Counted from the first letter of the stretch, positions 4,133 to 32,581 are shown. The stretch is 64,000 nucleotides of DNA from Candidatus Bathyarchaeota archaeon (GCA_963715865.1 OY970280.1:480001-544000), one strand, 5' to 3'. Notes: a model not told the origin generated them from the letters alone. A program made the numbers and translations.

Positions 4133-4136
4133 GTTT

Positions 4137-4466: not shown

Positions 4467-4471
4467 TGTTG

Positions 4472-16172: not shown

Positions 16173-17513
16173 CTACTGTCCTAATCCTATAGCGACGAAT
16201 TTCATTTTTCTGCTGAAAATTTTAGGATCATAGATCCTTCTTCCGTCAATCAGTACAGGTTGCTTCATGTTTCTTGTGAAATCTTCGGGCATGAGCTTTT
16301 TAAATTCAGGCCATTCTGTCACGATTATGCAACAGTCCGCTTTTTTGAGGCAGCCTATTGCTGAGGTGGCATATTGGATTTTGTTGTTGAAGATGACTTT
16401 TGCAACGGGTATAGCGACTGGGTCGTAAGCGGTTACGTTTGCACCTTCTTCTAAGAGTTGGTTTATTATCGGTATGACTCGAGCTTCTCTCATGTCATCT
16501 GTGTCTGCTTTGAATGCTAAGCCTAGAATTGCTATGCGTTTACCTTCTAGGTTGCCGAGTTGTTCTTTGCAGAATTGGATTGCTTTTAGGGGTTGAGTTT
16601 TGTTTACGTCTTCGACGGCGTCTAGTAGTTTTAGTGGGTAGCCGAGGTTTTTTGAGTATGCCATGAGGGCTTTTACGTCTTTGGGAAAACATGAACCGCC
16701 GTAGCCTAGTCCAGCGTTTAGGAATAGTGGGCCGATTCTTTTGTCTAGTCCCATGGCGGTGGCTACAGTTTTTACGTCTGCGCCGGGGATTTTTTCGCAT
16801 ATGTTGGCGATGGTGTTGATGAAGCTGATTTTTGTGGCGAGTAAGGAGTTGCTGGCGTACTTGATCAGTTCGGCTGTTGAGAGTGTGGTTCTGATTGTTG
16901 GGGGCGCATTTTTGGCGTAGAAGTCTTTGTAAAGGTTTTCTAAGGTGTCACCAGATTTCTTGTCGTATTCGCCTATGACTATGCGGTCGGTGTGCATTGT
17001 GTCTTCGAAGGCGGAGCCTTGGCGTAGGAATTCTGGGCTCATGCATAAACCAAAGTCTGGGCCACATTTCTTTTTTGATTCTTTTTCAAGGATTGGTTTG
17101 ACCAGATCTTGTGTTGTTCCTGGGACAACGGTGCTTTTTATTACTACCACGTGGTATGTACTTTTTTTGTGGAGCGCCTTTCCCATGTCGCGTGATGATG
17201 TTTCTATGAATTGTAGGTCTATGCTGCCGTCTGGTCTGCTGGGGGTTCCCACGGCGTTAAAGGTTAGGTCTGTTTCGAGGACGGCTTTTTCTGTTTGATC
17301 AATTAAACATTTTAGATAGCCATTTTGGACGGTTTTTTCAAGCAGATTTTGAAGGCTGGGTTCGTGAAATGGTGGGATTCCTTGATTTATTTTGGCTGCT
17401 TTTTCGGCGTCATGAGTCGAAGCGATGACGTTGTAGCCTTTGCTGGCAAATCCAACGGCGGTGCACAAGCCTACGTAGCCTATGCCTAAAACAGATATGT
17501 TAGGTTTTTCCAT
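16173..17513 (-). CDS. ugd: UDP-glucose 6-dehydrogenase
   Basis: GIGYVGL, SPEFLRQG, GYGGSCFPKD, GLAFKADTDDMRE. Confidence 0.94.
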   Translation of the reverse strand: MEKPNISVLGIGYVGLCTAVGFASKGYNVIASTHDAEKAAKINQGIPPFHEPSLQNLLEKTVQNGYLKCLIDQTEKAVLETDLTFNAVGTPSRPDGSIDLQFIETSSRDMGKALHKKSTYHVVVIKSTVVPGTTQDLVKPILEKESKKKCGPDFGLCMSPEFLRQGSAFEDTMHTDRIVIGEYDKKSGDTLENLYKDFYAKNAPPTIRTTLSTAELIKYASNSLLATKISFINTIANICEKIPGADVKTVATAMGLDKRIGPLFLNAGLGYGGSCFPKDVKALMAYSKNLGYPLKLLDAVEDVNKTQPLKAIQFCKEQLGNLEGKRIAILGLAFKADTDDMREARVIPIINQLLEEGANVTAYDPVAIPVAKVIFNNKIQYATSAIGCLKKADCCIIVTEWPEFKKLMPEDFTRNMKQPVLIDGRRIYDPKIFSRKMKFVAIGLGQ

Positions 17514-17601
17514 GAGTTTGATTCCTCAATTTAGTGTAATGATTCGTTTTCAATCTTCATTGAGTATATATTAGTTATGGCGGAAAGGTTAGAAAAAAAT
17601 T

Positions 17602-17652
17602 TTGATAATTCGTAAAGTTGTTGTTCCGGCTGCAGGTTTGGGAACGCGTTTG
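17602..17652 (+). pseudogene. 5' fragment of a galU paralogue
   Basis: MIIRKVVVPAAGLGTRL versus MMIRKVIIPAAGLGTRL at 17977. Confidence 0.8.
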
Positions 17653-17891
17653 TGCTTTTTCTGTTTGGTTAACTAAGCATTTCAGATTGCCTTTTTGTAC
17701 ACTATCCTTAAGCTTTTCTTGGAGCCCAGGCTCATGGAATGGGGGAAAACCCTTGTTAATTTTTGCCGCTTTCTCAGCATCAACATCTGAAGTGATAACA
17801 TTATAGTTTGGCTTGCGAAGCCAACCGCAGTGCATAGGCCTACGTAGCCAGCGCCTATAACCGAGATTTTTGTTTGTTTTTTCAAAGGCAA
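17653..17891 (-). pseudogene. frameshifted 5' fragment of a ugd paralogue
   Basis: KISVIGAGYVGLCTAVGFAS, frameshift, YNVITSDVDAEKAAKINKGFPPFHEP...TEKA. Confidence 0.85.
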
Positions 17892-17976
17892 ACCCTCAAA
17901 TTAATTGTTAATTTGGATTAAATATTCATATTAAATATATATGGGTTAACATAAGAACAGAGAGGCAAGAGGACGT

Positions 17977-18849
17977 TTGATGATTCGCAAGGTTATAATT
18001 CCTGCTGCAGGCTTGGGAACGCGCTTGTTTCCAGCTACTAAGGAGCAGCCTAAAGAGATGCTTCCAATTTTCTCTAAAACAATGCATGGTGACATGTCAG
18101 TAAAACCCGTGGTGCAGCTGGTTTTTGAGCAACTGTATGATGCGGGTCTCCGAGAATTTTGCTACGTGGTGGGCAGAGGAAAACGAGGCATAGAAGACCA
18201 CTTTACTCCTGACGCAAATTGTGTTAGAAACCTTGAGGGCATGGGCAAAAACGGCCAAGCATCGGACCTTGAGGATTTTTACCAAAAACTCAATACGTCC
18301 ACCATCATGTACGTGAACCAGCCTGAGCCGAAGGGGTTTGGCAACGCGGTTTTGATGGCGCAACCCTTTGTGCAGAACGAGAGTTGCCTTGTTCACGCTG
18401 GAGATAGCTGCATTATATCAAAAGACATGGATTACATCAGAAAGCTGTTGGATGCGTACGAGAGGCTTAATGCGGATGCAGCGTTCATCGCGTTGGAAAT
18501 TGAGAAACCAAAGCAATATGGCATCATCGAAGGAAACGAAGTTGAAAACGGAGTATACAAAGTAAAAACTGTAGTTGAGAAGCCTGAGAAACCTAAGACG
18601 AACTTGGCAGTCATGGCTATGTACGTCTTTCACCCAGTCATCTTTAAGGCGTTAGAAGCAACTAAACCAGGCAAAAACGGGGAAATCCAGTTGACAGACG
18701 CGATACAGAAGCTCATAGATTGGGGATTAAGCGTGTACGCAGTCAAGCTCGACAAAAACTATGCGCACCTGGACATTGGCAGTCCAGAAAGGTACTGGGA
18801 AGCCCTAGAGCTATCGTACAGGCAATTTTGCAGGAGAACAAATGTATGA
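17977..18849 (+). CDS. galU: UTP-glucose-1-phosphate uridylyltransferase
   Basis: PAAGLGTRLFPATKEQPKEMLP, QPEPKGFGNAV, GEIQLTDAI. Confidence 0.92.
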   Translation: MMIRKVIIPAAGLGTRLFPATKEQPKEMLPIFSKTMHGDMSVKPVVQLVFEQLYDAGLREFCYVVGRGKRGIEDHFTPDANCVRNLEGMGKNGQASDLEDFYQKLNTSTIMYVNQPEPKGFGNAVLMAQPFVQNESCLVHAGDSCIISKDMDYIRKLLDAYERLNADAAFIALEIEKPKQYGIIEGNEVENGVYKVKTVVEKPEKPKTNLAVMAMYVFHPVIFKALEATKPGKNGEIQLTDAIQKLIDWGLSVYAVKLDKNYAHLDIGSPERYWEALELSYRQFCRRTNV

Positions 18850-19856
18850 TGGACGAAATAATCCGCGAAGACATCAAAAAAATAAAAAGCCACGTCAAAG
18901 GCGAATTCTTCTCAGAGAAGAAGATGCTGGTGACTGGAGGAGCGGGCTTCATCGGCAGCTGGCTCTGCGATGTTCTGCTTGACTTCGGCGCTCAAGTCAT
19001 GGTTCTTGATGATTTTTCAACAGGAAGAATGAAGAACATCGATCATCTGTTGCAAAACGCGAAGTTTAAGCTGATAAAATCAGATGTCTGTAAGTTTAAG
19101 AGTAAAGAAAAATTCGATATCATTCTTCACATGGCAGGGCATGCTTCTCCGGACGAGTATCAGGTTCACCCAATTGAAACGCTGCAGACTAGCGCTGTTG
19201 GCACCAAGAACATGGCGGAGCTAGCTCGAAAGAACGATGCCGCATTGCTGTTTGCTTCAACTTCAGAAGTTTACGGTGACGCGGAAGTTGTACCTACGCC
19301 TGAAAGTTACTGGGGAAAAGTTAACCCCGTTGGACCTAGGTCGTGTTATGATGAAGGAAAGCGTTTTGCTGAGGCTTTACTTATGGCTTATGTTAAGCAA
19401 TATGGGTTGGATGTTAGAGTTCCGAGAATCTTCAATTCCTATGGTCCGCGTTTGCGAGAGGATGGATTGTATGGTAGGGCTATGTCGCGTTTTATTTTGC
19501 AGGCGCTGTCTAATCAGCCCATAACTGTCTACGGCGATGGAAAGCAGACGCGGTCATTCTGTTACATAACAGACACGGTAACAGCGTTAATGTTGTTGAC
19601 GGCAAGCTCGAAGGCGAAGGGAGAAGTTGTAAACGTAGGCAATACCAGCGAAGTTACTATACTTGAGTTGGCGGAGAAAGTCAAAGAAACAACAAAATGC
19701 AAATCAACCATAGAATTTCACCCACTGCCCAAAGACGACCCGAAAAGGCGCTGCCCAGACACAAACAAGTTGGAGCGGCTTGTAGGGTGGAAACCAACCG
19801 TGAGCTTCGAAGAAGGGCTAAAGAGAACGATTGGGTGGTTTTCGCAAAAGAAGTAG
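18846..19856 (+). CDS. uxs: UDP-glucuronate decarboxylase (UDP-xylose synthase, SDR)
   Basis: TGGAGFIGS, ASTSEVYGD, CYDEGKR, RIFNSYGPR, DDPKRRCPD; ATGA overlap with galU. Confidence 0.9.
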   Translation: MMDEIIREDIKKIKSHVKGEFFSEKKMLVTGGAGFIGSWLCDVLLDFGAQVMVLDDFSTGRMKNIDHLLQNAKFKLIKSDVCKFKSKEKFDIILHMAGHASPDEYQVHPIETLQTSAVGTKNMAELARKNDAALLFASTSEVYGDAEVVPTPESYWGKVNPVGPRSCYDEGKRFAEALLMAYVKQYGLDVRVPRIFNSYGPRLREDGLYGRAMSRFILQALSNQPITVYGDGKQTRSFCYITDTVTALMLLTASSKAKGEVVNVGNTSEVTILELAEKVKETTKCKSTIEFHPLPKDDPKRRCPDTNKLERLVGWKPTVSFEEGLKRTIGWFSQKK

Positions 19857-19940
19857 TCGACACTTAACGTAGGATAAGTAACTTTGGTTAGCAGCTAGAT
19901 AAGTTTGTGTTTGGTGCTGCTATATTTTTATAATAGAATA

Positions 19941-19963
19941 GGTATTATTATTTTGGTAATACC
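19941..19963. promoter_or_regulatory. putative TA operator palindrome
   Basis: GGTATTA-N9-TAATACC just before the antitoxin start codon. Confidence 0.55.
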
Positions 19964-19965
19964 AA

Positions 19966-20196
19966 ATGGGTAATCAGGTTACTGTTACGGCTAAAATTCC
20001 TGCTGAACTTAAAAAGAAGCTCACCAAGCTGGGTGTAAACGTGAGTGAATTGACGCGGGAAGCTTTGCAAAGGGAAGTGGAACGTTTAGAGAGAGAAAGG
20101 CTTAGGAATCTAGCTGAAGAGGCAAGTAAAATTCTTCAAAAAGTTCCAGCTGAAGAGATCGTTGAAGCTGTGCGGGCGAGCAGGGAGAACCGTTAA
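19966..20196 (+). CDS. vapB: VapB-type antitoxin
   Basis: VTVTAKIPAELKKKL..LGVNVSELTREAL; coupled to PIN gene. Confidence 0.85.
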   Translation: MGNQVTVTAKIPAELKKKLTKLGVNVSELTREALQREVERLERERLRNLAEEASKILQKVPAEEIVEAVRASRENR

Positions 20197-20618
20197 TGAA
20201 GCGTCCGTTGCTTTTTGATGCTAGTAGCATCTTTGCGCTTGTTAGAGAACTCGGAGGCGAAGCTCCAAATAAGCTTCTGGAGGGCTCCACCATATCGTTG
20301 GCTTATTATGAGTTGGGCAACGCTTTGTGGAGAGAGTGTTCTTTGCTCAAACACATAAGTCAGGAAGAAGCAGAAAAACTGCTAAGGGCAATGTATGCAA
20401 TTCTTCAAGCAATGGACGTAGTTGGGTTGGAAAATGAAGATGAAGGCACCATAATCTTGGATAAGGCATGCAAATTTAACATTACTTATTATGATTCCGC
20501 GTATGTTGCTGAAGCGTGCAAATCCAAGAAAACCTTAGTAACAGATGATAAAAAACTTGCTAAAGCAGCAGAAAACGCAGGCATAAAAACCTTAACCAGC
20601 AGAGACCTTATTCGATAG
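20196..20618 (+). CDS. vapC: VapC PIN-domain toxin
   Basis: LFDASSI, YELGNALW, TYYDSAY, LVTDD. Confidence 0.9.
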   Translation: MKRPLLFDASSIFALVRELGGEAPNKLLEGSTISLAYYELGNALWRECSLLKHISQEEAEKLLRAMYAILQAMDVVGLENEDEGTIILDKACKFNITYYDSAYVAEACKSKKTLVTDDKKLAKAAENAGIKTLTSRDLIR

Positions 20619-20694
20619 GCATTTTTTATCACATGTTGAACTTATGTTTCTTATTCTAATTGTTTTTTTCTCAAACTGCAATTTTAAAATTCTT

Positions 20695-20772
20695 TGATAG
20701 AGTGGAAGCTAAATGTGAGTTTTGAATGAAGGGCTTAAGAGAACGATTGGGTGGTTTTCACAAAGGAATTAG
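20695..20772 (+). repeat. uxs 3'-end remnant R1
   Basis: gtgagttttgaatgaagggcttaagagaacgattgggtggttttcacaaag versus uxs gtgagcttcgaagaagggctaaagagaacgattgggtggttttcgcaaaag. Confidence 0.9.
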
Positions 20773-20882
20773 GCGCCGTTAAGGGGTTATCTTGTTTTCA
20801 GCTGTTCGTTTCCCTGGCTTGTTTTAGTGGTTTATGATTCGTCAGCGTGTAAAAGCGGGCGAGAAGAATTTTGAAGACTGAG

Positions 20883-21272
20883 TTATTTTATGAAAATTAC
20901 GTTTTTTAGTTTTTTGAAGTGTTCGTCGCCAGTCACTACTTCTGCCTTCTTGATTTGTCCAGTGGCGTAGACTATGGAGTCGGCTAATCCCCAGCCGTCG
21001 ATTTCCTTTTTCATTCTGTTCTGTATCTTGGCGGATTCCAGAGCGATGAGTTCGTCTAACGGCACTAAGGCGCTTTTTTCTTTTATGAAGGTTCTCTGCT
21101 TTTCTGCTAGTTCTTGGTTCTCCACTCTGAGGGTTTTAGCGTAGATTTCAGCTAGGCATATTGTCGGGGTAATTTTTTCTTCTTGGCCTTCGATGGTGGG
21201 TTTGACTTTTTCGCCTGTTTTGGTTCCCATGAAGTATTCTATCCACGCGTAGGAATCGATCACATATTTCAT
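20883..21272 (-). CDS. vapC: VapC PIN-domain toxin
   Basis: YVIDSYAWIEY, CLAEI, LADSIVYAT, VVTGDEHF. Confidence 0.92.
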   Translation of the reverse strand: MKYVIDSYAWIEYFMGTKTGEKVKPTIEGQEEKITPTICLAEIYAKTLRVENQELAEKQRTFIKEKSALVPLDELIALESAKIQNRMKKEIDGWGLADSIVYATGQIKKAEVVTGDEHFKKLKNVIFIK

Positions 21273-21713
21273 AGACAACGGTCCTTGTGGTCGCGGAGGT
21301 CGGTTAGGTCCGTTTGTTTCATAACGCCGAACATGCTGTCTTTTTTGGTGAAGTACTCGATGAGTATTTTGTTTATTTGGTTTGAGATGTTTCTGGCGCC
21401 CGCTTTCTCCTTTAAATTTTGGTAAACGTCGTCTCTTAGCGTTATTGTTGTTTTTTTGGTCGTGAACATCACCATAAACATGTATGTAAATGCCTTCATT
21501 AATAGTTTGCGAGTTGAAGTTGAGGGCAACTTTGATTTCAATTTTCGCATGGCTGGCATGGCGTCTTCTGATGAGAGAAACTGAACGTTGGGAATTATTA
21601 GGAAGTAACTATTTTTGAACTTGCAAAAAAGGTCAAAGAAGTATCCAAATGCAAATCGGCTATAGAGTTTCACCCGTTGTCAAAGCAGTACCCGAAAAGA
21701 CGCTACCCCGACA
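21172..21713. repeat. 542 bp inverted repeat, left copy (partner 32040-32581)
   Basis: Reverse complement matches 32040-32581; antitoxin translations identical in the ORF track. Confidence 0.95.
21269..21475 (-). CDS. vapB: VapB-type antitoxin
   Basis: KKTTITLRDDVYQNLK...SMFG; overlaps PIN start. Confidence 0.82.
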   Translation of the reverse strand: MVMFTTKKTTITLRDDVYQNLKEKAGARNISNQINKILIEYFTKKDSMFGVMKQTDLTDLRDHKDRCL

Positions 21714-21785
21714 TAAGCAAAATAGAGAAGCTTGTTGGGTGGATGCCGAATGTGAGCTTTGAAGAAGGACTTCGCAGAGTCTCTA
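21575..21785 (+). repeat. uxs 3'-end remnant R2
   Basis: Translates NVGNY*EVTIFELAKKVKEVSKCKSAIEFHPLSKQYPKRRYPDISKIEKLVGWMPNVSFEEGLRR, homologous to the uxs C-terminus. Confidence 0.92.
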
Positions 21786-22030
21786 TTCCCGTCGCAGTTT
21801 TCGAGCGTACTTGCCACAAGAAGTAGGAAGCATCTAGCACTTAACACGTTAAACATTCAGGGCATTCGAGAAAAAGCGGAAACGCAAATTTTGGGTGTCG
21901 TGTTTTGCTTTTTGGCGGGGAGTTGTTTGTTATCTTTCTTTGATTGTTTCGGTGGAAATGTTGAATATGGTGGTAAAGGGTGGTAAAGTATTAAAGTGTC
22001 TTTTTCTACTTTGTTTATTGGTGTAGTTTT

Positions 22031-22306
22031 GTGACTGTTACTGTAAAAATCGAGGAGGAGAAAAAGGCAAAAGTGGACCGTTTTTTAGCCTCCATTATGC
22101 TTCAGGAAGGTGTGAAGGTAACTCTGCAAGAAGCCATAGGTCTAATGATTGATTATGCGCTTGAAAATGAGGAAGAGGTCATTAAGAAGCTCAGGGAGTT
22201 GCCTGTTCTTGAGGAGGATCCGGCGTGGAAAGCGCTTAAAAATCCGAAGCATTGGGGAGTAAAAGATTCTTCGAAGAGGATAGATGAATTCGTGTACGGT
22301 TGCTGA
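22031..22306 (+). CDS. vapB: antitoxin (VapB-type, different family)
   Basis: TVKIEEEKKAKVDRF...LPVLEEDPAW...DSSKRIDEFVYG; overlaps PIN gene. Confidence 0.78.
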   Translation: MTVTVKIEEEKKAKVDRFLASIMLQEGVKVTLQEAIGLMIDYALENEEEVIKKLRELPVLEEDPAWKALKNPKHWGVKDSSKRIDEFVYGC

Positions 22307-22719
22307 ATGGCATGGCGGTTTTTGTGGATACTGGAATTTTTGTGGCTATGCACAATGCGGATGACGAGTTTCACTTAAGAAGCAAAGACCTTGTTGAGCG
22401 CGCTTTAAAGGGCGATTTTGGTCGGATATTTACTTCAGACTATGTGGTGGATGAGGCGATAACTACTGCTTTGGTGAGAACGAAGAGGCATGATTTGGCA
22501 TTAGACTTGGGAAGGTACATAATTGAGTCCCCGAGAATCACGAAGGTATGGGTTGGGGAAGATGCTTTTAAAAAGGCATGGGGAAAATTTAGGGTTTTTA
22601 AAGATAAGCCCTTAAGCTTTACAGATTGTACCTCAATAGCACTCGTTGAGATGAGTGGGATTAAGCAGATTATGAGTTTTGACTGCGGCTTTGACGGATT
22701 AGTCCCCAGAATTTGCTAG
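22300..22719 (+). CDS. vapC: VapC PIN-domain toxin
   Basis: VFVDTGIF, DYVVDEAIT, SFTDCTS, SFDCGFD; likely start ATG 22312. Confidence 0.92.
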   Translation: MLNGMAVFVDTGIFVAMHNADDEFHLRSKDLVERALKGDFGRIFTSDYVVDEAITTALVRTKRHDLALDLGRYIIESPRITKVWVGEDAFKKAWGKFRVFKDKPLSFTDCTSIALVEMSGIKQIMSFDCGFDGLVPRIC

Positions 22720-22725
22720 TTAGCC

Positions 22726-22922
22726 TTATAGAACTGGCTCTAAGAAAAATAAAAGAATCCCACAGTGCAAATCCACCAGAGCTTCATCCGTTGTCTTGAG
22801 ACGACCCGAAAAGACGCTGCCCAGACACAAGCAAACTAGAAAGGATTGTTGGGTGGAAGCCGAACGTGAGCTTTGAAGAAGGGTTGAAGAGGACTGTAGC
22901 TTGGTTCTCAAGAAAGCCGTAA
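22726..22922 (+). repeat. uxs 3'-end remnant R3
   Basis: HPLS*DDPKRRCPDTSKLERIVGWKPNVSFEEGLKRTVAWFSRKP*. Confidence 0.93.
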
Positions 22923-22993
22923 AGAACGGAAAACGGTCCCTTTTTATTTTTTGCAAGTTTTGAAGCTAATTCTTCAAAAACTTCTTATTTTTC

Positions 22994-23173
22994 AATAGGA
23001 AGGGGCTTGAAATGGGCTTGGAATTGCTAAAGCTTGAAGATAACGGCTTGCAGTGTTGGAAGTTTGTGAAGGAATTAGGTGTGAAACATGCGCTTACTTG
23101 TCATTATTTGCACAATTTTGATGCGTTTGTGCGCGATAAATGGCGTTTTGGGAAGCTTCCAAGAAAATGTTAA
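22994..23173 (+). pseudogene. degenerate copy of the TerS-like N-terminus
   Basis: NRKGLEMGLELLKLEDNGLQCWKFVKELGVKH versus NEKTLERRLELLRLEGNGFQPSEIVKELSVKY at 24979. Confidence 0.7.
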
Positions 23174-23378
23174 GGGTGACGTGATGCAGAAAACAATTCA
23201 TTCAGAAGACATGTAAACGCTAGCTTGTTTAAGGCTTAGGCTGCTGAAAAAATTATTGAAAAACGATAGGGGCACTCAGCGTAATCCGATTTCGTCAAAG
23301 CCCTCTATTGCATATTCCCAGCGTTTACATTCGAGATTCTCAAGCATTTTTTATGTTAAGCAAAGCATCATTATGAGT

Positions 23379-24596
23379 CTAGTGGGGCAGGAAGAAAGCA
23401 CCTATGCCTGGAGGTGGAGTTCGTTTTAGTTGCCAAGCAGCCAACGCTAAAGCTACAACGCAGTCATCGTGGTAGCCTTCAGGCGCCCCATACTGCACAT
23501 TTCCACTTGGCGTAGTCTTGTAACCGTACAGCTTAAGCTCATTGATCAACTCGGGAACCTGTGGTAACGTCAGCTGCTGATTCTCAATCATTATGCTCAA
23601 GTTCTCGATAAGGTCTTTTTTCGTTGCGTTCGTGAACTTGTAACCTTCAACACGGATGTTTTCACGGTGGAGCTCATCGCATATTGGATCACCAACACCT
23701 GTACTATCGATAAGCAAGCGAGCATCATATCGCTGGGCAAGTTGAACTATGCGTTTACGCTGCAAAACCCAGTCTAACTCGCTAAACCTGTCGAAAGCGC
23801 AGAGGTGCCCGTCCATATCTAAAACGCAAAGCACTGTGAAGTCTTCAAGCTTAGCAAGGTCAGCGCCCATAACGTACTGTTTATGTTGTTCAAAGGTTTG
23901 AAAGCTGCCTTTGACTATGCGGTCAACGCCTCGGAAAACACTGCCAACATCCTCAAGAAACTCAGCGAGAACCTCTTGACGGTAAGCCAGCTCAGGCATA
24001 TCCCTGGCGAAAGCCGCAATCTCTGCTGGATCCAAATATGGGTTGCTGGCGCTTGGGAAACTCCAGCTCTTATAATCAGTCTGCGACGGGTCTTGCCCGC
24101 GAGTCCAGAGCCGAAAATACCAGTTATGCCCTCTTGGCGTGCCCGTGAAAAAAGCTATTCCTTTCTCATCCATAAGCGCTGGTCTAAGCGCAAGAGTCCA
24201 AGCTTCCTCAGCAATCTGTGCACCCTCATCAACCCAGAGAACTTTTACGCCTTGGCTCCTAAGTGAATCAGGGTTATCTGCGCTCTTAAACCAGATATTG
24301 CGGTTACCCTTGAGGATAACATGGCGGTCAGCGCGATGAATTTCCTCTATCAGTTCAGCTGGGCAAAAATTGAAGAACTCACTCCATTGCCGCTGAGTAT
24401 GCCAATAAGTGGGAGCTACAGCGAAGCCTACTATGTTTGGGTCTTGTTTCCACATTTGCCTTATGAATTCGTTGGCGCCTGCAACAGTTTTACCCCAGCG
24501 ACGCCCACAGTTAAGCACCCTAAACCTTGCTGCGTGATAGTGGAATTCAACTTGCCCAGAGTGAGGCTTGTACCTAATCAGTATTCTTTTTTGCAA
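23379..24596 (-). CDS. phage terminase large subunit
   Basis: GRRWGKT Walker A, WVDEGA Walker B, GTP coupling motif, nuclease DLAKLED and HDDCV. Confidence 0.92.
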   Translation of the reverse strand: MQKRILIRYKPHSGQVEFHYHAARFRVLNCGRRWGKTVAGANEFIRQMWKQDPNIVGFAVAPTYWHTQRQWSEFFNFCPAELIEEIHRADRHVILKGNRNIWFKSADNPDSLRSQGVKVLWVDEGAQIAEEAWTLALRPALMDEKGIAFFTGTPRGHNWYFRLWTRGQDPSQTDYKSWSFPSASNPYLDPAEIAAFARDMPELAYRQEVLAEFLEDVGSVFRGVDRIVKGSFQTFEQHKQYVMGADLAKLEDFTVLCVLDMDGHLCAFDRFSELDWVLQRKRIVQLAQRYDARLLIDSTGVGDPICDELHRENIRVEGYKFTNATKKDLIENLSIMIENQQLTLPQVPELINELKLYGYKTTPSGNVQYGAPEGYHDDCVVALALAAWQLKRTPPPGIGAFFLPH

Positions 24597-24979
24597 ACCT
24601 TAGGGTCCTCCCATTTGATGACAGTTTCTTCAGGCTCAGCGGACTTTTGAGATTTAGCGCCTGTTAACTCAGCGAGGTCAAAGTTTATCTGCCGCAGAAG
24701 ATTCAAAGCAGTTATCCGAGCCCGGTCAGACTTAGCCTGCATATACGCGACTACAGCTTTCCGATACAGCTGCTCATGCCTATTGCGAACTTTAAGCAGA
24801 GCATCCTTCGTCTCTTGCAACAGAGGCTGCCAGCTCCTTCGAGTCTCAAAATCCAAGTAAACTGCACGCTGAGTAACTCCATACTTAACACTTAATTCCT
24901 TCACAATCTCAGAAGGCTGAAAACCGTTTCCTTCAAGCCTCAACAGTTCCAAGCGTCTTTCAAGCGTCTTCTCGTTCAT
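24578..24979 (-). CDS. putative terminase small subunit (HTH)
   Basis: HTH-like N-terminus, helical middle, EETVIKW tail; overlaps TerL start. Confidence 0.6.
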   Translation of the reverse strand: MNEKTLERRLELLRLEGNGFQPSEIVKELSVKYGVTQRAVYLDFETRRSWQPLLQETKDALLKVRNRHEQLYRKAVVAYMQAKSDRARITALNLLRQINFDLAELTGAKSQKSAEPEETVIKWEDPKVCKKEY

Positions 24980-24998
24980 AATTCAGCACCTTTTTCTC

Positions 24999-26097
24999 TT
25001 ACTCGGATGAATAGCCTCCGCATGTTCGTTTCTGAGGAATATATTCAAGGGAAACGGTAAGACGCCGCTTACTGCTAGACTTTAGCAATTCCCGATTTAT
25101 CCGAGTGTCCTCTCGCCCATGGCTGCCATGGCCAACACGCTTAACTCTCCAGTTACCCAGATTTCCGCGGACGAGCTGAGGATTGCTCGTAACCAGATAG
25201 AAGGGCAAATTCACCTGAGAAGTGTAAAGCTCAGCGATAAAATTTAGTAGCCTTTTGCCGATACCTATGCCCTGGTAATCAGGCAAGACAACTAAGCGGC
25301 TGACGCGATAATAATTTGCCCTCATACGAATGTGCACTACAGCCATGAATGCTACCGGCTTATCCTGATTGACCGCCGCGTAGCATCGGGCGGTTGAAGG
25401 AAGTGAACCGCTTAGATAGTGATAGTGCCGAAACATTTTCCAAAGGGAAGCGCCGCACCGATAAACTTTGAGTTCAACGGGCGGCCGAGCTCTTTTTTTC
25501 GGTCAAACTCCATCGTATCAGTGCAGAAGACCCAGTCTGGATCCAACCAATCAACTAACGTCATAATGGCAGGTTACGGCAATGAATTTCTTGTCTTTCT
25601 GGCGCCGAATTGCCTTGCTGATTGCGTAAGAAGCGATCTTTGCAACTTCTCGGTCCACAACTGACGTGAACTCATCGAAAACGATAACTTTCTGAGAAAG
25701 ACAGAGAGCACGAGCGATATCAACGCGCATCTTCTCCCCTTGGCTAAGGCAGCTGTAAGCTTTGAGCCAGTCTGGAGGACTAGCAAAGCCAACGCTGCAG
25801 AGCAGTCGTGTTATTTCGCTTGTTTCTATAGTCTTCAGGAAAATCATCCAGTATGCATTGGTGCGTGTACTCGAAGCCAGTGAAGTAGGAGTCTGGGAAG
25901 AGCTGTTTGGCTATGCTTGATTTGCCTGAGCCGCTGCGCCCCACGATTATGCCGATCTGCCAGTCGTCGCCTTCTATTGGCAGCGAGCCTTTGAAACGCT
26001 TCTGCAACTTAACATCGTTTAGCGTGAAGCTGCCCACGACGCTTTGGGCTCGGAAACTGTCTGGTTCACTCCAACTGTTTACAAAATCAAAATCCAA
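24999..26097 (-). pseudogene. phage ABC-ATPase + GNAT acetyltransferase gene, split over several frames
   Basis: GRSGSGKS, LSQGEKMR, VFDEF, VTCH; GNAT RLVVLPDYQGIGIG; shifts near 25830, 25555 and at the A7 run 25493-25499. Confidence 0.8.
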
Positions 26098-26110
26098 ACT
26101 GTCAAGCCTC

Positions 26111-26680
26111 CTAAAGATTCAGGACTCTTACCTTGTAGCCTTCAGCCTTGAGTTTCTCAAAGAAGCACTGCTGTTCCGCCTCATCCTTGCATTCTATAAT
26201 GAGCTCGTAGCTGCCAGGTATGATGCTTGAGCCTTCATGTTCACCACCAAGGTCTTCGGGAAGCTTCTCGCCAACAGACTCTAACAAGGCTTTGAGACAG
26301 TCTTTTTCGCCAGCCTCTATAATGCGCATGTACTCAGCGCCGTCAAGCTCCTTGTTATGCTTGCCCTTGAGCTTGTTCAGAATTTGCCGAAGCATCCTTC
26401 TGTCGACGTCAGAAACAGGCAGCCGAAGAACTGGAGCAAAAAACTCGCCATGCCCCTTGCAGACTTCCGCCCGTTGCTCGCCATCAGCAAAAACGCCATC
26501 CTTGTTAGTTATGATAGGGTAAGTCCAGCCGTACTTCTGAAGGCTAAGCCAAACCTGATCCTTCTGCTTTATCGTCATCTTATTAGGGTTATTTTCGTCG
26601 CTTCTTAAAAGCCGAAGATCTTCAATGAGGGACAGATAAGCGTCAGGAACCTTAATTGTTGTTTTCTTTTCAGCCAACAT
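26111..26680 (-). CDS. ParB/Srx-like nuclease-domain protein (phage type)
   Basis: ENNPNKM...LQKYGWTYPIIT...ADGEQR; C-terminal IIECKDEAEQ..FEKL..EGYKVR. Confidence 0.8.
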   Translation of the reverse strand: MLAEKKTTIKVPDAYLSLIEDLRLLRSDENNPNKMTIKQKDQVWLSLQKYGWTYPIITNKDGVFADGEQRAEVCKGHGEFFAPVLRLPVSDVDRRMLRQILNKLKGKHNKELDGAEYMRIIEAGEKDCLKALLESVGEKLPEDLGGEHEGSSIIPGSYELIIECKDEAEQQCFFEKLKAEGYKVRVLNL

Positions 26681-26917
26681 GACACCCTACCGTTATCTTC
26701 TTTGTTGTTCTTCTCTGGTCTTGAAAACTTTTTCAAGCAAGTCTTTTTGCGGTATTCTGATTTCAATCGTGTTGTTACACATTTTTTTATCATCGCAAAA
26801 TATATATTAGCACCTTGCTGTTATATATCTTTAAGATACATAGCTAAATGATGCGGTATATATCTGAAAGCGCCGAATAGCTGTATATCGTAAAAAACTT
26901 GCAAGAGGGGACTATAG

Positions 26918-27727
26918 ATGCCAAAAAGAATAACAAATCCACTGAGAGCAGGATTGCCTTCAAAAATCTACTATTTAGCGTACAGTGGCCCTATAACTGG
27001 TTATGAAATAGCACAAAGGATTTACGGAATAAAACCTCCAGCCATTCCGCCAACAGCTAAAACTTACGAATGGATCAAGAAGCTAAAAGATCAAAGAATA
27101 CTTTCAGAAACAGAACATGGATGTATGTCCAATGTTGAGCCATTGCTGAATGAAATTGAATTGACTCTTAAAAAGAAAGATAGCTCTGATTTTTCAAACT
27201 TTGAAAAGCATATGACGGGAAAGATTCTAGGCTGTAGGGAGTTTAGGGCTTTTATAGGTAGATTTAATCTCGAAAGTTTCTCGCAAGATCAAGATTTTGA
27301 TGCTGCGTTCAGAATGATGGATCTTCTAAGCTTTCAAGCTATCCGCATCTTTTCATCAGGTGTCTCTAAATACGAGGCTAAGACTCAAAAAGAATTTGAT
27401 AAATTGTTTGATGCGGCTATTACGTTGATTCATAATCCCGAATTTCAAAAGGAGTTACAAGAAGTAAACTTACTTAAAGATATAAAGGATCCCAAGCAAT
27501 TAAGCGAAACAAAGAAGCTAATAAGTAAAATGAAAAATTACCCTTTATTTGACATCGACAACTTAGGCATCTTCCTAGCAGTTCCCAACCGAACCCTAAA
27601 AAAACTGTGCAAACTCAACAAATATTACGAAATGATAGAATCCTTAAGCAGTAACCCGCTATATTTTAAGACATTCCAAGCATTTGCTCAAAAACTATAC
27701 ATCCAAAGACGAGAAAAGACTGACTGA
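26918..27727 (+). CDS. hypothetical protein with wHTH-like N-terminus
   Basis: SKIYYLAY..PITGYEIAQRIY; divergent from the ParB gene. Confidence 0.6.
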   Translation: MPKRITNPLRAGLPSKIYYLAYSGPITGYEIAQRIYGIKPPAIPPTAKTYEWIKKLKDQRILSETEHGCMSNVEPLLNEIELTLKKKDSSDFSNFEKHMTGKILGCREFRAFIGRFNLESFSQDQDFDAAFRMMDLLSFQAIRIFSSGVSKYEAKTQKEFDKLFDAAITLIHNPEFQKELQEVNLLKDIKDPKQLSETKKLISKMKNYPLFDIDNLGIFLAVPNRTLKKLCKLNKYYEMIESLSSNPLYFKTFQAFAQKLYIQRREKTD

Positions 27728-27754
27728 TTTTCTATCTCTATAGCAATGATTTAG
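27511..27754 (+). repeat. about 240 bp direct repeat, copy 1 (gene 3' end plus UTR)
   Basis: Matches 28362-28603 with substitutions and indels. Confidence 0.9.
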
Positions 27755-27774
27755 TCGATTCTCTTCAATCAGAG

Positions 27775-28035
27775 CTATTTCATTTTGTAGACGTTTTTAC
27801 GATGACCAACTGCCAAGAGGATAATTTTCCCGCCTTCGATTCGGTATAGGACGCGGTACTTTCCAACTCTTGTTGAAAATACGCCTTTGAATTCTCCATG
27901 CAACGGTTTATCTACTTTAGGGTTGTTTTCCCATGAATAGACTTCTTTGATTATTTGAACCTGAGCTTTCTGGTCAAGAGTTCTGATTTGTTTCGAAAAA
28001 CGATGAGTCAGCTCAACTGTGAACTTGTGTTTCAA
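27775..28035 (-). CDS. relE: RelE/ParE-family toxin
   Basis: KPLHGEFKGVFSTRVGKYRVLYRI...LAVGHRKNVY. Confidence 0.9.
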   Translation of the reverse strand: MKHKFTVELTHRFSKQIRTLDQKAQVQIIKEVYSWENNPKVDKPLHGEFKGVFSTRVGKYRVLYRIEGGKIILLAVGHRKNVYKMK

Positions 28036-28219
28036 GGTGCAAATCCCGCACTAGCTCATCTAGCGTCATGGTTTTTCCCTGTTTAGCTTCGCGCAAAGAA
28101 GCCCGTAGGTCTTTTACCAATTTCTTGTCCTGCATGACTTCAAGCGTCTCGAGCAGTTCTTCCATCAGGCTTGCTGCTTTCGTGAGCAGTTCTTTTTCGT
28201 CGGTTGTTAAGAGAGCCAT
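28013..28219 (-). CDS. RelB-like antitoxin
   Basis: ELLETLEVMQDKKLVKDLRASLREAKQGKTMTLDEL; overlaps toxin. Confidence 0.8.
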   Translation of the reverse strand: MALLTTDEKELLTKAASLMEELLETLEVMQDKKLVKDLRASLREAKQGKTMTLDELVRDLHLETQVHS

Positions 28220-28361
28220 AATTGTATGCGCCGTTGTTTAAGATATGAGCGATGGGGTTCTTATCTTTTGCTTTCCGGTAGGGAAAAATTGGGGAGAGCT
28301 TTAAAACTAAGCCTGAACGCTCGCATTGTCTGCTTCTTTGAATAAAACCAAAATTAAGAAA

Positions 28362-28603
28362 AAAGAAGCTAATAAGTGAAATGAGAAATGACCCTTTACT
28401 TTTCATCGGAAACTTGGGCATCTTCCTCGCAGTTCCCACCGAACCCTAAAAAAACTGCAAACTCAGCAAATATTACGAGTTTATAGCATACTTAATCGAT
28501 AGATCGCTAGATTTTTTTACATTCCAAGCATTCGCTCGAAAAACTATACACCCAAAGAGGAGAAAAGACTGACCGATTTTCTATCTCTAAAGCAATGATT
28601 TAG
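28362..28603 (+). repeat. about 240 bp direct repeat, copy 2 (decayed)
   Basis: aacttgggcatcttcctcgcagttccc...gagaaaagactgaccgattttctatctct...agcaatgatttag. Confidence 0.9.
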
Positions 28604-28660
28604 ACGCCGTTGCTTTAACTATTGAAAAAACTTCGACCCCTCGTTTATAAGGGAATGAAG

Positions 28661-28726
28661 AAACCGAATGTGAGTTTTGAGGAAGGGCTAAAGAGAACGG
28701 TAACGTGGTTTTCACAAAAAAGCTAA
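28661..28726 (+). repeat. uxs 3'-end remnant R4
   Basis: aaaccgaatgtgagttttgaggaagggctaaagagaacggtaacgtggttttcacaaaaaagctaa = KPNVSFEEGLKRTVTWFSQKS*. Confidence 0.92.
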
Positions 28727-28739
28727 AGGAAACACAAAG

Positions 28740-28900
28740 ATAATCAATAACTATTTCAATCATAACTCGTTTCGGGAAGAATTAGGGGAGAAAAAAGCAA
28801 AGGTGATAACCAGCGTCGCTATGTTCTACGATCTTGAAGATCCCAACTCGTTTGTAAAAGACATAAAAAAATGCCTTGACCCTAATGGCTTATGGATAAC
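28740..28900 (+). pseudogene. internal fragment of an NDP-hexose C-methyltransferase
   Basis: IINNYFNHNSF...KAKVITSVAMFYDLEDPNSFVKDIKKCLDPNGLW. Confidence 0.7.
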
Positions 28901-29395
28901 TGCCCCATGCGAACTTTGAAGCAGATAAGGGATAGGCTGTTCCAACCCTTGCATTTTCTGTTGGATAACCTTACAAGACCTATTTTTAGAAATTACTTCT
29001 TAAAACATTATCACGTTCATGGAGATCCAGCTAGGTTAAAAATTGCGAGAACGGCCGTTGTCAATAATGCAACCTTTAACTTATCGTCCGGAACCATCTC
29101 TATAGAGGATTATGTTTTTTTCGGTTCTAATGTGAGCGTAATTACTGGAACTCATGACATGAACAAACTGGGACTAGAAAGGCTGTCTGTTTTTCCTAGT
29201 TCTGGGAGAGACATAACTATAAAGAAGGGCGCTTGGATAGGAAGCAATGTCACCATCTTGGGGCCATGCACAATAGGAGAGAACGCCGTAGTTGGAGCCT
29301 GCTGTCTAATACGTCATGATGTACCGGCAAATACATTATGCTATACAGATAATAAAGTCATTTTGAAGCCTCTAAGCTTGCCACATTCGAATTAG
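28892..29395 (+). CDS. LbH hexapeptide O-acyltransferase
   Basis: VITGTHD, ITIKKGAWIGSNVTILGPCTIGENAVVGA. Confidence 0.88.
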   Translation: MDNCPMRTLKQIRDRLFQPLHFLLDNLTRPIFRNYFLKHYHVHGDPARLKIARTAVVNNATFNLSSGTISIEDYVFFGSNVSVITGTHDMNKLGLERLSVFPSSGRDITIKKGAWIGSNVTILGPCTIGENAVVGACCLIRHDVPANTLCYTDNKVILKPLSLPHSN

Positions 29396-29804
29396 CGCAC
29401 GCGCTACCACAAGCCGCCCTAAGCAGCGGGCTAACTGATACTCCTGCACGATATGAAAGTTTTAGAATTCTTAGAGTTTTATGTATGGAGCGCGCTGCCT
29501 TGTCCCTTTATTATGTGATGTGGAACTGATATTATACTTTTTCTAATGTAATTGATATATGGAAATTGTATCAAATGAAAAATAGGATAAAAACTTAAAG
29601 GAAACTTAGAGTTATTTCAATAAAGATTTACTGTGTACATCTTAACCCTTGAATGTACTCGGTAAAACTTTCTCAATGTTGAAATTCCATGTTTCCAGCC
29701 ATTATAAGAAATATAAAATATGGAGACCTACGACAACACAAGAATACGATGAGAAGCTAAAGAGAAAAGAGTGATGCGTCTTCTCAGCGCGAACAAAGGT
29801 CACA

Positions 29805-30491
29805 TTATACTTTTACGATTAAGCACTGGTTTCCAGATATAGAAATGATGGGTTCTGGTTTATCTTTGAAAAACTCGTGAAATGCCGTCCTAACGTCGTG
29901 TGCAAAGAAGTAATCATGTGAAATAATTATGCCACCTCGGCTCATACGTGGATAGAAGAATTTCAGACATTCCGAAGTACTCTTGTAAATGTCTACGTCT
30001 AGATGCACAAATGAAAATTTCTTATCTTTAACTGGGGTTGCGGTAGCTGGGAATAGTCCTTTATAGAAATACACGTTTTGGCATTCTCTAAGGCTATGTT
30101 TGACTTCTTCAAGCGGAGCAGCAAATTCCCCCTTGAAATATTGGTTATCAATTTCTTCAGCTTCAGGCAGCCCTTCATAAGTATCGAAAAGATGCAAAAC
30201 CTTATCGCCCTTTACTTTGCATATAAGTAAAGCTGAGCCACCTTTAAACACACCTACTTCAGCAATATCGCCTTCAATCTTTGAGGTATTTTGAACAGAC
30301 GTAACGATTTGGTATGCTTCATATGTTGCAAGCAGCATTACAGACTCTTTCTTACATTGACGAATTAAATTAACAATTTTGCTTCTTTCCGCGTCTCTTA
30401 GAGAGATGACAACCAAGTTTTGTCTTTCCATTTCATTAAACAAAAAGTTGACCAAGGTCCATTTTATTTTGTTTGCTGGGTTCATACGCAT
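29805..30491 (-). CDS. TylF/MycF/NovP-family O-methyltransferase
   Basis: GDIAEVGVFKGGS, FDTYEGLP, GLFPAT, VHLDVDIY, HDY. Confidence 0.88.
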   Translation of the reverse strand: MRMNPANKIKWTLVNFLFNEMERQNLVVISLRDAERSKIVNLIRQCKKESVMLLATYEAYQIVTSVQNTSKIEGDIAEVGVFKGGSALLICKVKGDKVLHLFDTYEGLPEAEEIDNQYFKGEFAAPLEEVKHSLRECQNVYFYKGLFPATATPVKDKKFSFVHLDVDIYKSTSECLKFFYPRMSRGGIIISHDYFFAHDVRTAFHEFFKDKPEPIISISGNQCLIVKV

Positions 30492-30543
30492 ACAGTTATG
30501 TTAAGGAAGCTACTAAGCAGTTAATATATTGATAGCACGCTTG

Positions 30544-30597
30544 AACGATTACACGGCACAATCAGGCAGAGAAACAAAAATCATGCGAGGTTTAGAC
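30544..30597 (+). mobile_element. IS6-like transposase C-terminal fragment
   Basis: ERLHGTIRQRNK, frameshift, IMRGLD. Confidence 0.55.
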
Positions 30598-30711
30598 TGT
30601 TTTGAGTGTGAGAAGTCCCTGAAAAGCCTCTGAGAAGTATTTGAGAAGTCTCTGAATGCTTGTTTTTTCGTTGTTAGAACCTATTTTTGAGTGCTGCACG
30701 CTACCTCTCTT

Positions 30712-30810
30712 TTGATTGCAGATTCAACGCCGCTGGTGGACCTCTACGATATGGAAGCAGGATGGGGTTACATGAGTAGAGGAAAGTTTAGAGGCTTTAA
30801 GCTTCACGCT
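30712..30810 (+). mobile_element. IS4/IS5-type DDE transposase fragment
   Basis: LIADSTPL...EAGWGYMSRGKFRGFKLH. Confidence 0.65.
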
Positions 30811-30903
30811 GGTCAGGTGGCAGTTCAAGATGGACGCGGAACAAGCTCTAAAAGTCGCCGTGGACGCTGTCAACGTGTGGAGCAGCGGACAAACCTCTAC
30901 GCA

Positions 30904-31044
30904 AAAATGGGCAAAACTCACGCAGTATGATGTCAAGAAGCAACAAAAACAATCACAGGAGTACCAGTAATCGGTTCATTGCCAGTCAACAAGGAAATCG
31001 AGTTGCCAGAAGAGGCATCTGGGTCTTATCCCGACAGAAGAAAA
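30904..31044 (+). pseudogene. internal fragment of cobyrinate a,c-diamide synthase (CbiA/CobB)
   Basis: KMGKTHAV*CQEATKTITGVPVIGSLPVNKEIELPE, +1 shift, RHLGLIPTEE. Confidence 0.65.
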
Positions 31045-31137
31045 AGAAACCTTAAATTCGTCCTTTCACCAATTGAGGATTTAGGACGCACTATCGTTCC
31101 ACTGTTGAGTCATAAAAATTCGTAAGGTCCTTTATGA

Positions 31138-31980
31138 GTGATATCGATAATTTCGGTAATAAATAATGAGCAACGTGCTAAAGAATACCTACTTCGAGCA
31201 CTCAACCGTCAAAATGCTAAATACCAGAGTTTGTTGATTGACAATACATCGGGTGTCTACAAAAATGCTGCCCAAGCTTATAATTATGCTGGCTCCAAAG
31301 CCAACGGTGATTATCTTGTATTCGTGCATCAGGACGTGTTTTTTCCTTTCAGAGAATGGCTAAAAGAAATTGAAGATTATCTCTCAACCCTATCAGATGT
31401 TGGTGTTGCAGGATTAGCTGGTATGGTGAAACCACGTTTCTTAAATGAATTTGAATTGTTTTCACGCTATTTTTTGCTTAACAAAATCGGAAATTACCGC
31501 TTATGGTTCTCTTTATATGGTCGAGGAAACTTGCTTCAAGAGATAGATGGTCAACCAGGTCCAGGTAGAATAATATCTGAACCCGTTCCAGTTCAAACGG
31601 TTGATGAACTAATGTTGATAGTTCCGGCCAAAGTTTTTGAGACCAACAAGTTTGATGAGAAAGTATGCGATAACTGGCACCTTTATGGCGTTGATTTTTC
31701 ATTGACTGTATCCAAGAAAGGCTTGAAAACCTATGTTCTGCCATCCTCAGCTATTCATCATTCAGGAGGTAAAATCGATAGTTTTTATGTCCAAACTCTT
31801 AAAAAACTAATCGAGAAACATGAAATGGAAAAGATAATAAATACTACGTGCGGATTAATTCCTACTAAAAAAGAGTTCATGGACTTCTTTTGGGAACGTT
31901 ACCCTTACCTTGTTCCCAACATGGCTAAAAATGGTCATAAGTTCGTTTTTACTTGTTTAAGCCTGTTATGGACTTTTTGA
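31138..31980 (+). CDS. GT-A glycosyltransferase
   Basis: YLVFVHQDV, VAGLAG, TVDELML, WHLYGVDFSL. Confidence 0.85.
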   Translation: MISIISVINNEQRAKEYLLRALNRQNAKYQSLLIDNTSGVYKNAAQAYNYAGSKANGDYLVFVHQDVFFPFREWLKEIEDYLSTLSDVGVAGLAGMVKPRFLNEFELFSRYFLLNKIGNYRLWFSLYGRGNLLQEIDGQPGPGRIISEPVPVQTVDELMLIVPAKVFETNKFDEKVCDNWHLYGVDFSLTVSKKGLKTYVLPSSAIHHSGGKIDSFYVQTLKKLIEKHEMEKIINTTCGLIPTKKEFMDFFWERYPYLVPNMAKNGHKFVFTCLSLLWTF

Positions 31981-32277
31981 CGAACCCTTTTAGCCTGCGC
32001 TTAAGGACGACGAACCCAGAGGCTTCACTAGCTTGTTCGTGTCGGGGCAGCGTCTTTTCGGGTACTGCTTTGACAACGGGTGAAACTCTATAGCCGATTT
32101 GCATTTGGATACTTCTCTGATCTTTTTTGCAGGTTCAAAAATAGTTACTTCCTAATAATTCCCAACGTTCAGTTTCTCTCATCAGAAGACGCCATGCCAG
32201 CCATGCGAAAATTGAAATCAAAGTTGCCCTCAACTTCAACTCGCAAACTATTAATGAAGGCATTTACATACATGTTT

Positions 32278-32484
32278 ATGGTGATGTTCACGACCAAAAA
32301 AACAACAATAACGCTAAGAGACGACGTTTACCAAAATTTAAAGGAGAAAGCGGGCGCCAGAAACATCTCAAACCAAATAAACAAAATACTCATCGAGTAC
32401 TTCACCAAAAAAGACAGCATGTTCGGCGTTATGAAACAAACGGACCTAACCGACCTCCGCGACCACAAGGACCGTTGTCTATGA
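32278..32484 (+). CDS. vapB: duplicate VapB antitoxin
   Basis: Same translation as 21269-21475. Confidence 0.8.
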   Translation: MVMFTTKKTTITLRDDVYQNLKEKAGARNISNQINKILIEYFTKKDSMFGVMKQTDLTDLRDHKDRCL

Positions 32485-32581
32485 AATATGTGATCGATTC
32501 CTACGCGTGGATAGAATACTTCATGGGAACCAAAACAGGCGAAAAAGTCAAACCCACCATCGAAGGCCAAGAAGAAAAAAT
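32481..32581 (+). pseudogene. truncated VapC (first 33 codons)
   Basis: MKYVIDSYAWIEYFMGTKTGEKVKPTIEGQEEK, then homology ends. Confidence 0.85.

Follow-up and report, generated by a model that had tools for sequence, protein, structure and literature searches.

The 3' end of uxs, a nucleotide-sugar gene of a peat Bathyarchaeon (Candidatus Bathyarchaeota archaeon), is a real accretion site at the border between the conserved nucleotide-sugar genes, which stand in the order ugd, galU and then uxs, and a variable surface-glycan region. The stretch analysed here, referred to as the window, is a 64-kb segment (genome positions 480001-544000) of a genome, G000, that consists of a single closed 2.35-Mb contig; positions are those of the window unless marked as genome positions. 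Downstream of the live uxs gene, four intervals that carry toxin-antitoxin (TA) pairs and a truncated virus segment are each closed by a displaced copy of the uxs tail. Direct repeats of the uxs 3' end flank every unit and the target gene is restored, as in accretion. Serial insertion with tail replacement is well supported at this locus.

Displaced tails of the uxs gene

The uxs product belongs to the NAD-dependent epimerase/dehydratase family (Pfam) and shares 72-88% amino acid identity with its orthologues within the genus. The current working tail, R0, comprises the last ~60 nt of the live gene. The extents of R1 to R5 were set by blastn, tblastn and nhmmer, and profile positions refer to a profile of the last 300 nt of uxs.

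18846-19856, plus strand: live uxs, UDP-glucuronate decarboxylase-type short-chain dehydrogenase/reductase (Pfam Epimerase/GDP_Man_Dehyd, E 1e-52 to 1e-56)
19778-19820, plus strand: hot spot for junctions within the tail of uxs, at profile positions ~225-267; the motif (19800-19816) lies inside it
20698-20775, plus strand: R1, displaced uxs tail of 78 nt, 83% to uxs
21575-21830, plus strand: R2, displaced uxs tail, uxs residues 261-328, with one in-frame stop
22719-22921, plus strand: R3, displaced uxs tail, with one stop and an indel
28660-28723, plus strand: R4, the most distal uxs tail
32014-32581, minus strand: inverted copy of the VapB gene of the second unit together with the R2 left arm (R5), 98% identity

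The initial annotation of this DNA had described a uxs core that recurs in the same orientation behind the live gene, and this description stands. The motif GTGAGYTTYGARGAAGG has exact matches at 19800, 21752, 22866 and 28670, all on the plus strand, against a chance expectation of 0.00 (100 shuffles), and the copy at 20715 differs by a 1-nt insertion. The spacings between successive copies are 915, 1037, 1114 and 5804 bp, as had been given. R2 and R3 cover the last 65-75 uxs codons, and R1 and R4 cover the last ~20. In addition to these copies, a new sixth uxs tail, R5, lies inverted at 32178-32014 on the minus strand.

The displaced tails differ from live uxs primarily at third codon positions, an excess that had been pointed out before. 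The differences at the first, second and third positions number 15/9/31 for R2 and 13/5/22 for R3. The proportions of nonsynonymous and synonymous differences (pN/pS) relative to live uxs are 0.165/0.741 for R2 and 0.102/0.750 for R3 (ratios 0.14-0.22, with pS saturated) and equal those obtained between live uxs and 64 orthologues (median pN 0.149, pS 0.736). These orthologue-like values support the view, already held in the initial annotation, that the remnants are the tails of diverged, once functional uxs alleles and not slippage products or in-place duplicates. Stops and indels are confined to the displaced copies, with one stop and small indels in each of the long ones, and live uxs is intact. 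Furthermore, the live uxs end of the related genome G018 is the tail that travels with the second TA unit (TA2). R1 is 93% identical to this live end, and the right part of R1 is the same TA2-borne tail. The intact live gene and the G018 end agree with the earlier proposal that insertion restores the gene end and displaces the old one.

Cargo of the array, its relatives and similar stacks

Each of the first three intervals holds exactly one antitoxin gene paired with a PIN gene, and the three antitoxins are different from each other; the fourth interval holds a terminase/ParB provirus remnant and a RelE/ParE pair (Pfam, PHROGs). The cargo is thus as originally read. A small antitoxin gene abuts the PIN or RelE/ParE gene, and the antitoxin and toxin genes overlap by 1-23 nt. 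By this gene layout and by Pfam, the units are predicted to be type II TA pairs (VapBC, RelBE/ParDE).

19966-20618, plus strand: unit TA1, a 76-aa RHH/CcdA-like antitoxin (19966-20196) and a 140-aa PIN-like toxin (20196-20618), by Pfam, with a weak PIN match
20883-21478, minus strand: unit TA2, a PIN toxin (20883-21278; Pfam PIN, 3.6e-14) and a VapB antitoxin (21269-~21478; VapB, 2.4e-5)
22031-22719, plus strand: unit TA3, a 91-aa antitoxin candidate (22031-22306) and a PIN toxin (22300-22719; Pfam PIN, 5.4e-12)
23379-26680, minus strand: truncated tailed-virus segment (Pfam and PHROGs)
23379-24596, minus strand: TerL, the large terminase (Pfam/PHROGs)
24578-24979, minus strand: small open reading frame (ORF) in the virus segment
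24999-25436, minus strand: GNAT (Pfam/PHROGs)
25551-26097, minus strand: broken ABC-ATPase (Pfam/PHROGs)
26111-26680, minus strand: ParB-like N-terminal domain protein (Pfam/PHROGs)
26918-27727, plus strand: 269-aa ORF with no Pfam or PHROGs match
27775-28219, minus strand: RelE/ParE toxin (27775-28035; Pfam ParE_toxin, 7.5e-10) and its antitoxin (28013-28219)
28352-28606, plus strand: displaced 3' end (~75 codons) of the 269-aa ORF, 85% identical to 27498-27757

TA2 and the RelE/ParE pair are inverted relative to uxs, and the 91-aa antitoxin candidate of TA3 matched no known family. The virus segment shows 72-76% nucleotide identity to one end of 13-20 kb IMG/VR contigs and is shared with genome G070, in which it directly follows uxs. 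The 269-aa ORF is itself the target of a nested insertion, as the RelE/ParE pair lies between the intact and decayed copies of its tail. The pN/pS of this tail copy is 1.45, and thus no purifying signature is present there.

Array content and order vary among the genus loci, in line with the TA accretion site that had been proposed. Of 120 genus genomes, 106 have a match to the last 80 uxs residues, paralogous dehydratases included, and about 70 uxs loci were searched with the tail profile up to 18 kb downstream each. About 15 of these loci carry one to nine remnants at uxs, and 52 carry none. TA2, together with its long left arm and the in-frame stop of R2, is 90-97% identical in four genomes and four contexts, as the second unit in the window, as the first in G018 (where it supplies the live uxs end), as the fifth in G003, and also in G045. 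G045 contains counterparts of TA1 (97% identical, L034) and TA3 (96%), and three Joint Genome Institute (JGI) peat contigs (L246-L248) carry uxs-TA1-TA2-TA3, including TA3, at ~100% identity. A UPF0175/DUF3368 unit occurs in six contexts and is found both before and after TA2. This rules out one ancestral order of units from which different members were later lost. The comparisons of these loci indicate that units have been inserted or exchanged repeatedly.

The other arrays contain mostly TA cargo (PIN genes with VapB, MazE/AbrB or other partners, RelBE and an AbiE-like pair), along with AAA_14/DUF4143 ATPases, a large secreted protein and sugar genes. Between uxs and TA1, G045 has a 245-bp unit that contains no gene. 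No clean empty site for TA2 was found in G045, where TA1 and TA3 are separated by 95 nt from another tail. In G012 (L094, G012:C13, 9650-12000), three consecutive remnants end at profile positions 225-230, immediately ahead of the motif, and this genome, with a completeness rating of 100%, yielded no live uxs. Related secreted proteins of ~900 aa with a common N-terminal motif form cargo at genome positions 2010731-2013430 of G000 (in a tRNA-Gly stack) and, in the uxs stacks of G097 and G022, at L043 (15722-18478) and L015 (9694-12384).

The same architecture recurs at other genes. At least six other cassettes in the genome lie between diverged direct tail copies of an unrelated neighbouring gene.

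Genome 4124-5073: VapBC cassette, flanked by diverged direct gene 3'-end copies, 80-85%
Genome 1100559-1101382: RelB cassette, flanked by direct gene 3'-end copies, 80-85%
Genome 1670753-1673634: ATPase cassette, flanked by direct gene 3'-end copies, 80-85%
Genome 1725971-1727311: PIN/AbrB cassette, flanked by direct gene 3'-end copies, 80-85%
Genome 1756315-1757734: PIN/AbrB cassette, flanked by direct gene 3'-end copies, 80-85%
Window interval 4: RelBE cassette within the 269-aa ORF, the sixth tail-flanked cassette

A purifying signature (pN/pS 0.06-0.47) is seen in four of the six cassettes. The recurrence of this layout at unrelated genes argues against a uxs-specific enzyme and for either homology-driven recombination or many different recombinases. 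In other Bathyarchaeota (L119, 807-4743; L118, 3451-4757), tail copies of a ~290-aa dehydrogenase-like gene, part of a different sugar cluster, enclose a stack made up of a TA2 vapBC homologue, another PIN pair and a RelBE pair. Flanking repeats are detectable at only 6 of 57 loci with other vapBC homologues, and the footprint is thus often absent or erased. Stacks of units that lie between tRNA 3'-end remnants and lack an integrase are located at genome positions 2009502-2016146 and 1731489-1740367 (tRNA-Gly(tcc), tRNA-Ala(tgc)), and one 815-bp unit of a tRNA stack contains only two small ORFs (113 and 102 aa).

Several further repeats lie in and around the array. A 560-bp inverted repeat of 98.2% identity (21172-21731 versus 32581-32022) spans the VapB gene, the first ~35 PIN codons and the R2 left arm; 10.3 kb of sequence lies between its copies, the second of which abuts a methyltransferase gene, and the repeat could mediate inversion. 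Directly after R4, 28760-28900 reads as a C-terminal methyltransferase fragment without a start and is probably another gene remnant. An inverted 100-bp repeat of 74% (22999-23098 versus 24872-24971) places a decayed N-terminus of the terminase-adjoining small ORF beyond the terminase gene. Upstream of uxs, a diverged tandem duplication involves the 5' ends of ugd and galU.

17284-18028, no strand assigned: diverged tandem duplication, 375 bp, 68%, covering both 5' ends (ugd, galU) and the promoter region common to the two genes

The decayed copy sits between live ugd (minus strand) and live galU (plus strand), and imprecise allele replacement would leave a scar of this kind.

Possible engines of accretion

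What drives the accretion? We propose, with confidence that stands at about even, that host homology-anchored serial insertion with tail replacement is the engine, which would require no integrase encoded in the array. The data show the anatomy of the site, the descent of the remnants from working ends, the differences between relatives, the shared units, the lack of recombinases nearby and the mosaics; which enzyme acts, in what order the events came and why TA pairs persist are inferred, as follows. Foreign segments, mostly a single ~1-kb TA pair, would arrive serially at the uxs 3' end, and each incoming segment would bring a diverged uxs allele tail that becomes the new working end; the earlier tail would be displaced downstream and would then decay. 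One join would form within the uxs tail, and the far join would form in a second tail or illegitimately, through homology-facilitated illegitimate recombination. Alternatively, the insertion may be a Campbell-type crossover of a circularised fragment. The uxs tails would serve as portable recombination sites, so that units could be inserted, lost or swapped between strains via tail homology, and TA pairs would outlast deletions that strip other cargo. TA pairs, as addiction modules, are expected to outlast other cargo, and they may predominate in the arrays because they are addictive.

Some of the breakpoints speak for the involvement of homology. The left edges of the remnants range from profile position 1 to 252, and breakpoints lie mostly 25-65 nt before the stop codon, with others deeper in the tail. 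The change-points of shared units fall at profile positions 120-171 and also at 226-229 and 264-267, and several breakpoints are located 90-135 nt upstream of the proposed core. The JGI contigs L246-L248 leave the window sequence at ~22790, a point in the left arm of R3 that precedes the motif by 90 nt, and continue into a different unit known from G094 and then into a tail type common in the genus. This recent recombination breakpoint within R3 is the only recent exchange between nearly identical strains. In addition, L248 has a diverged patch restricted to the live uxs tail (19483-19883), and L246 switches allele upstream of 19283, inside uxs. These mosaics and the spread change-points point directly to ordinary homologous recombination at work in the arrays.

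A number of observations weigh against the host-driven engine. Nine of 55 remnants start at profile positions 224-252, 7 of the 12 remnants that stop short of the tail end do so at 225-235, and the boundaries of several units agree to within about 20 nt from one context to another; clustered junctions of this kind are expected of a site-specific enzyme. When the remnants are compared with the footprint of homology-facilitated illegitimate recombination, the left edges are variable and mosaics are present, but the edges cluster. At only 61-83% identity, the tails are poorly suited to classical homologous recombination. Pairwise identity averages ~0.67 at the motif versus 0.83 at profile positions 184-203. 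The idea that the core is the best-conserved tail block was rejected, as the best blocks are profile positions 184-203, 4-23 and 70-89, and plain homology therefore fails to explain the hot spot. The same genome also contains TA-only units between tRNA-Gly 3' remnants of 17-21 nt, a length that homology-driven insertion could not use and that points to integrases. Moreover, stacks with repeated gene ends are known as integrase products (PMC6563490; e14 at icd, PMC13626634), and homology-facilitated illegitimate recombination is documented in bacteria, not archaea (PMC3240628).

Site-specific accretion in trans is the main alternative, which we consider possible and short of probable. The units would be integrase-less, att-flanked mini-elements of ~1 kb, comparable to integron cassettes or cis-mobilizable elements (CIMEs), with a core that precedes the stop codon by about 25-65 nt. 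They would be inserted and excised by a recombinase, of the tyrosine or another type, whose gene lies at a distant genomic site or arrives with a virus or plasmid, and homologous recombination between the repeats would only reshuffle the arrays later. Such an enzyme would account for the hot spot at profile positions 224-267, which is shared by left- and right-truncated remnants, for the TA1 end that is fixed beside two different right-hand tails, for the TA2 left boundary at about position 262 in four contexts and for the common stopping point of the three G012 remnants. The TA-only tRNA-Gly units favour it as well, and archaeal integrative elements target gene 3' ends and form arrays (PMC6563490). 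The initial annotation had seen no recombinase gene in the window and had suggested a search of the genome for one; nine tyrosine-recombinase matches lie elsewhere in the genome, and none lies in the window. The tyrosine recombinases of the genome include those at genome positions 563985, 933737, 936235, 230516 and 896560. In opposition to a trans-acting enzyme, tyrosine recombinase (PF00589) matched neither within the window nor close to the arrays in 10 further genomes (11 genomes together), SSV-type and serine recombinases had no match in the window, this genome being the one searched, and no integrase families turned up among the unit proteins scanned. The tails have no invariant core, with a longest run of well-conserved columns of 5 nt, and breakpoints at 120-171 include the only recent one. 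The gene-less 245-bp unit of G045 is hard to see as a mobile element, and six or more unrelated genes would require as many specificities. The searches for a viral or plasmid source also gave nothing: none of 80 terminase-related IMG/VR contigs carries a uxs tail that could act as attP, a scan of IMG/VR with the uxs C-terminus returned only full-length paralogous dehydratase genes, and TA1-TA3 DNA had no match in plasmid and phage collections.

Two elements of the initial annotation are not sustained by these searches. The integration of small circles through a site-specific recombinase is not demonstrated, given the lack of an array recombinase and of an invariant core and the breakpoints 90-135 nt upstream of the core. 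The description of the site as integron-like fails, and an integron was ruled out: IntI, attI and attC hairpins are absent, and the cassettes are not co-oriented, one being inverted. When R0-R4 were folded as DNA on both strands in a search for attC-like hairpins, the z-scores were -0.3 to +1.6 versus shuffles.

Alternatively, each unit could be the leftover of an individual virus or plasmid. Such an element would have used an integrase of its own to enter uxs and would then have lost everything except the addictive TA pair, in which case the units never moved. The fourth unit is visibly a truncated virus, and the survival of TA pairs is what established knowledge of addiction modules predicts under erosion. 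However, ~1-kb units keep the same boundaries on both sides in four to six neighbourhoods and orders, independent loss would not yield identical ends, and no integrase-bearing intermediate was seen at about 70 uxs loci. Erosion of full-size elements is therefore improbable. Homology-anchored insertion by the host remains the preferred engine.

An artefact or local duplication, by strain-variant misassembly or by in-place tandem duplication with neutral decay, has a next to negligible probability: although a multi-strain peat community was sampled and the 269-aa ORF tail copy lacks a purifying signature, the genome closes as one contig, the junctions are bridged both in other samples and by the JGI contigs, the uxs remnants show the purifying-selection signature of separate alleles and arrays are present again in about 15 genomes. 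Four sequencing runs on peat and wetland, from different studies, provide short contigs that contain TA1, TA2 and TA3 at 98-99% identity and bridge R1 and R2, so the concern that the repeats reflect misassembly is answered. In one peat contig, 20654 is joined to 28660 through 31 nt of other sequence. Low-depth metagenome joints (19767 to 22846, 21657 to 19706 and 22848 to 32149; depth 2-2.6, short sides) were not counted, and the joint that goes back from 21657 to 19706 (depth 2.6), seen in assembled contigs, was not taken as evidence of an excised circle.

Relation to known systems

Chromosomal TA modules rarely adjoin recombinases, for example in Photorhabdus (PMC13617665). The uxs locus offers a testable footprint, with defined units, displaced tails that record each event, a polymorphic peat population and about 15 comparable arrays. 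It is conceivable, at somewhat below even confidence, that gene-tail accretion is a general route of TA colonisation without an array-encoded recombinase (an 'integron without an integrase') or that an unrecognised trans recombinase uses the uxs-tail site; either route would be undescribed for archaea. In the first case, the tail of a conserved gene would act as a portable homology arm, and every capture would exchange the tail and strand its predecessor. The stack would then double as a reservoir of small modules, selfish or defensive, and as a legible archive of earlier gene transfers. If host recombination is the engine, conserved genes beside variable regions can gather foreign modules without a dedicated enzyme; if a hidden recombinase exists, the uxs tail is its target site. 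Annotation pipelines would list the remnants as pseudogenes and overlook the array structure.

The locus shares tail replacement and stacking with known cases, but neither their recombinase nor their exact core was found. The integrative and conjugative elements (ICEs) ICESt1/ICESt3 and the CIMEs at fda, which form tandem islands, are likewise att-flanked units at a conserved gene 3' end, some of them integrase-less (PMC5704250, PMC7563491), and tandem islands also occur at ssrA of Dehalococcoides (PMC3146451). However, ICE/CIME arrays hold or neighbour their cognate integrase and have a short exact core. At uxs, no such core was found, nor did the arrays or their surroundings yield a matching site-specific recombinase, and the units are far smaller and almost exclusively TA. 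The integrated-element arrays of Thaumarchaeota resemble the uxs stack in their archaeal host, gene 3'-distal target and re-used site but consist of multigene elements with integrases or casposases and 8-26 bp att sites (PMC6563490).

Homology-facilitated illegitimate recombination, with a homologous anchor and a non-homologous joint, would produce a chimeric end together with foreign DNA and the remains of the resident tail, whose left edge would vary; it has been shown in bacteria only, upon transformation or conjugation, and stacking and a hot spot are not described for it (PMC3240628). Sedentary chromosomal integrons and archaeal integrons have, like uxs, a variable array of small cassettes, many of them stabilising TA modules (bioRxiv 10.1101/2022.02.06.479319). 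In contrast to integrons, the uxs array has no IntI, attI or attC hairpins, its orientation is mixed and its repeats are coding tails of a housekeeping gene.

Phage 21 replaces the tail of icd in a similar manner. The e14 element at E. coli icd is comparable to the uxs units in that the incoming tail becomes the working end and the old tail is left as the C-terminal pseudogene icdC, with mostly conservative or synonymous differences (PMC13626634). e14 stands alone, is 15 kb long, encodes its integrase and excises upon SOS induction, whereas four to nine integrase-less units of ~1 kb are stacked at uxs in varying orders. At uxs as at icd, an alternative functional tail has come in, and the old tail persists as a pseudogene with mainly synonymous differences.

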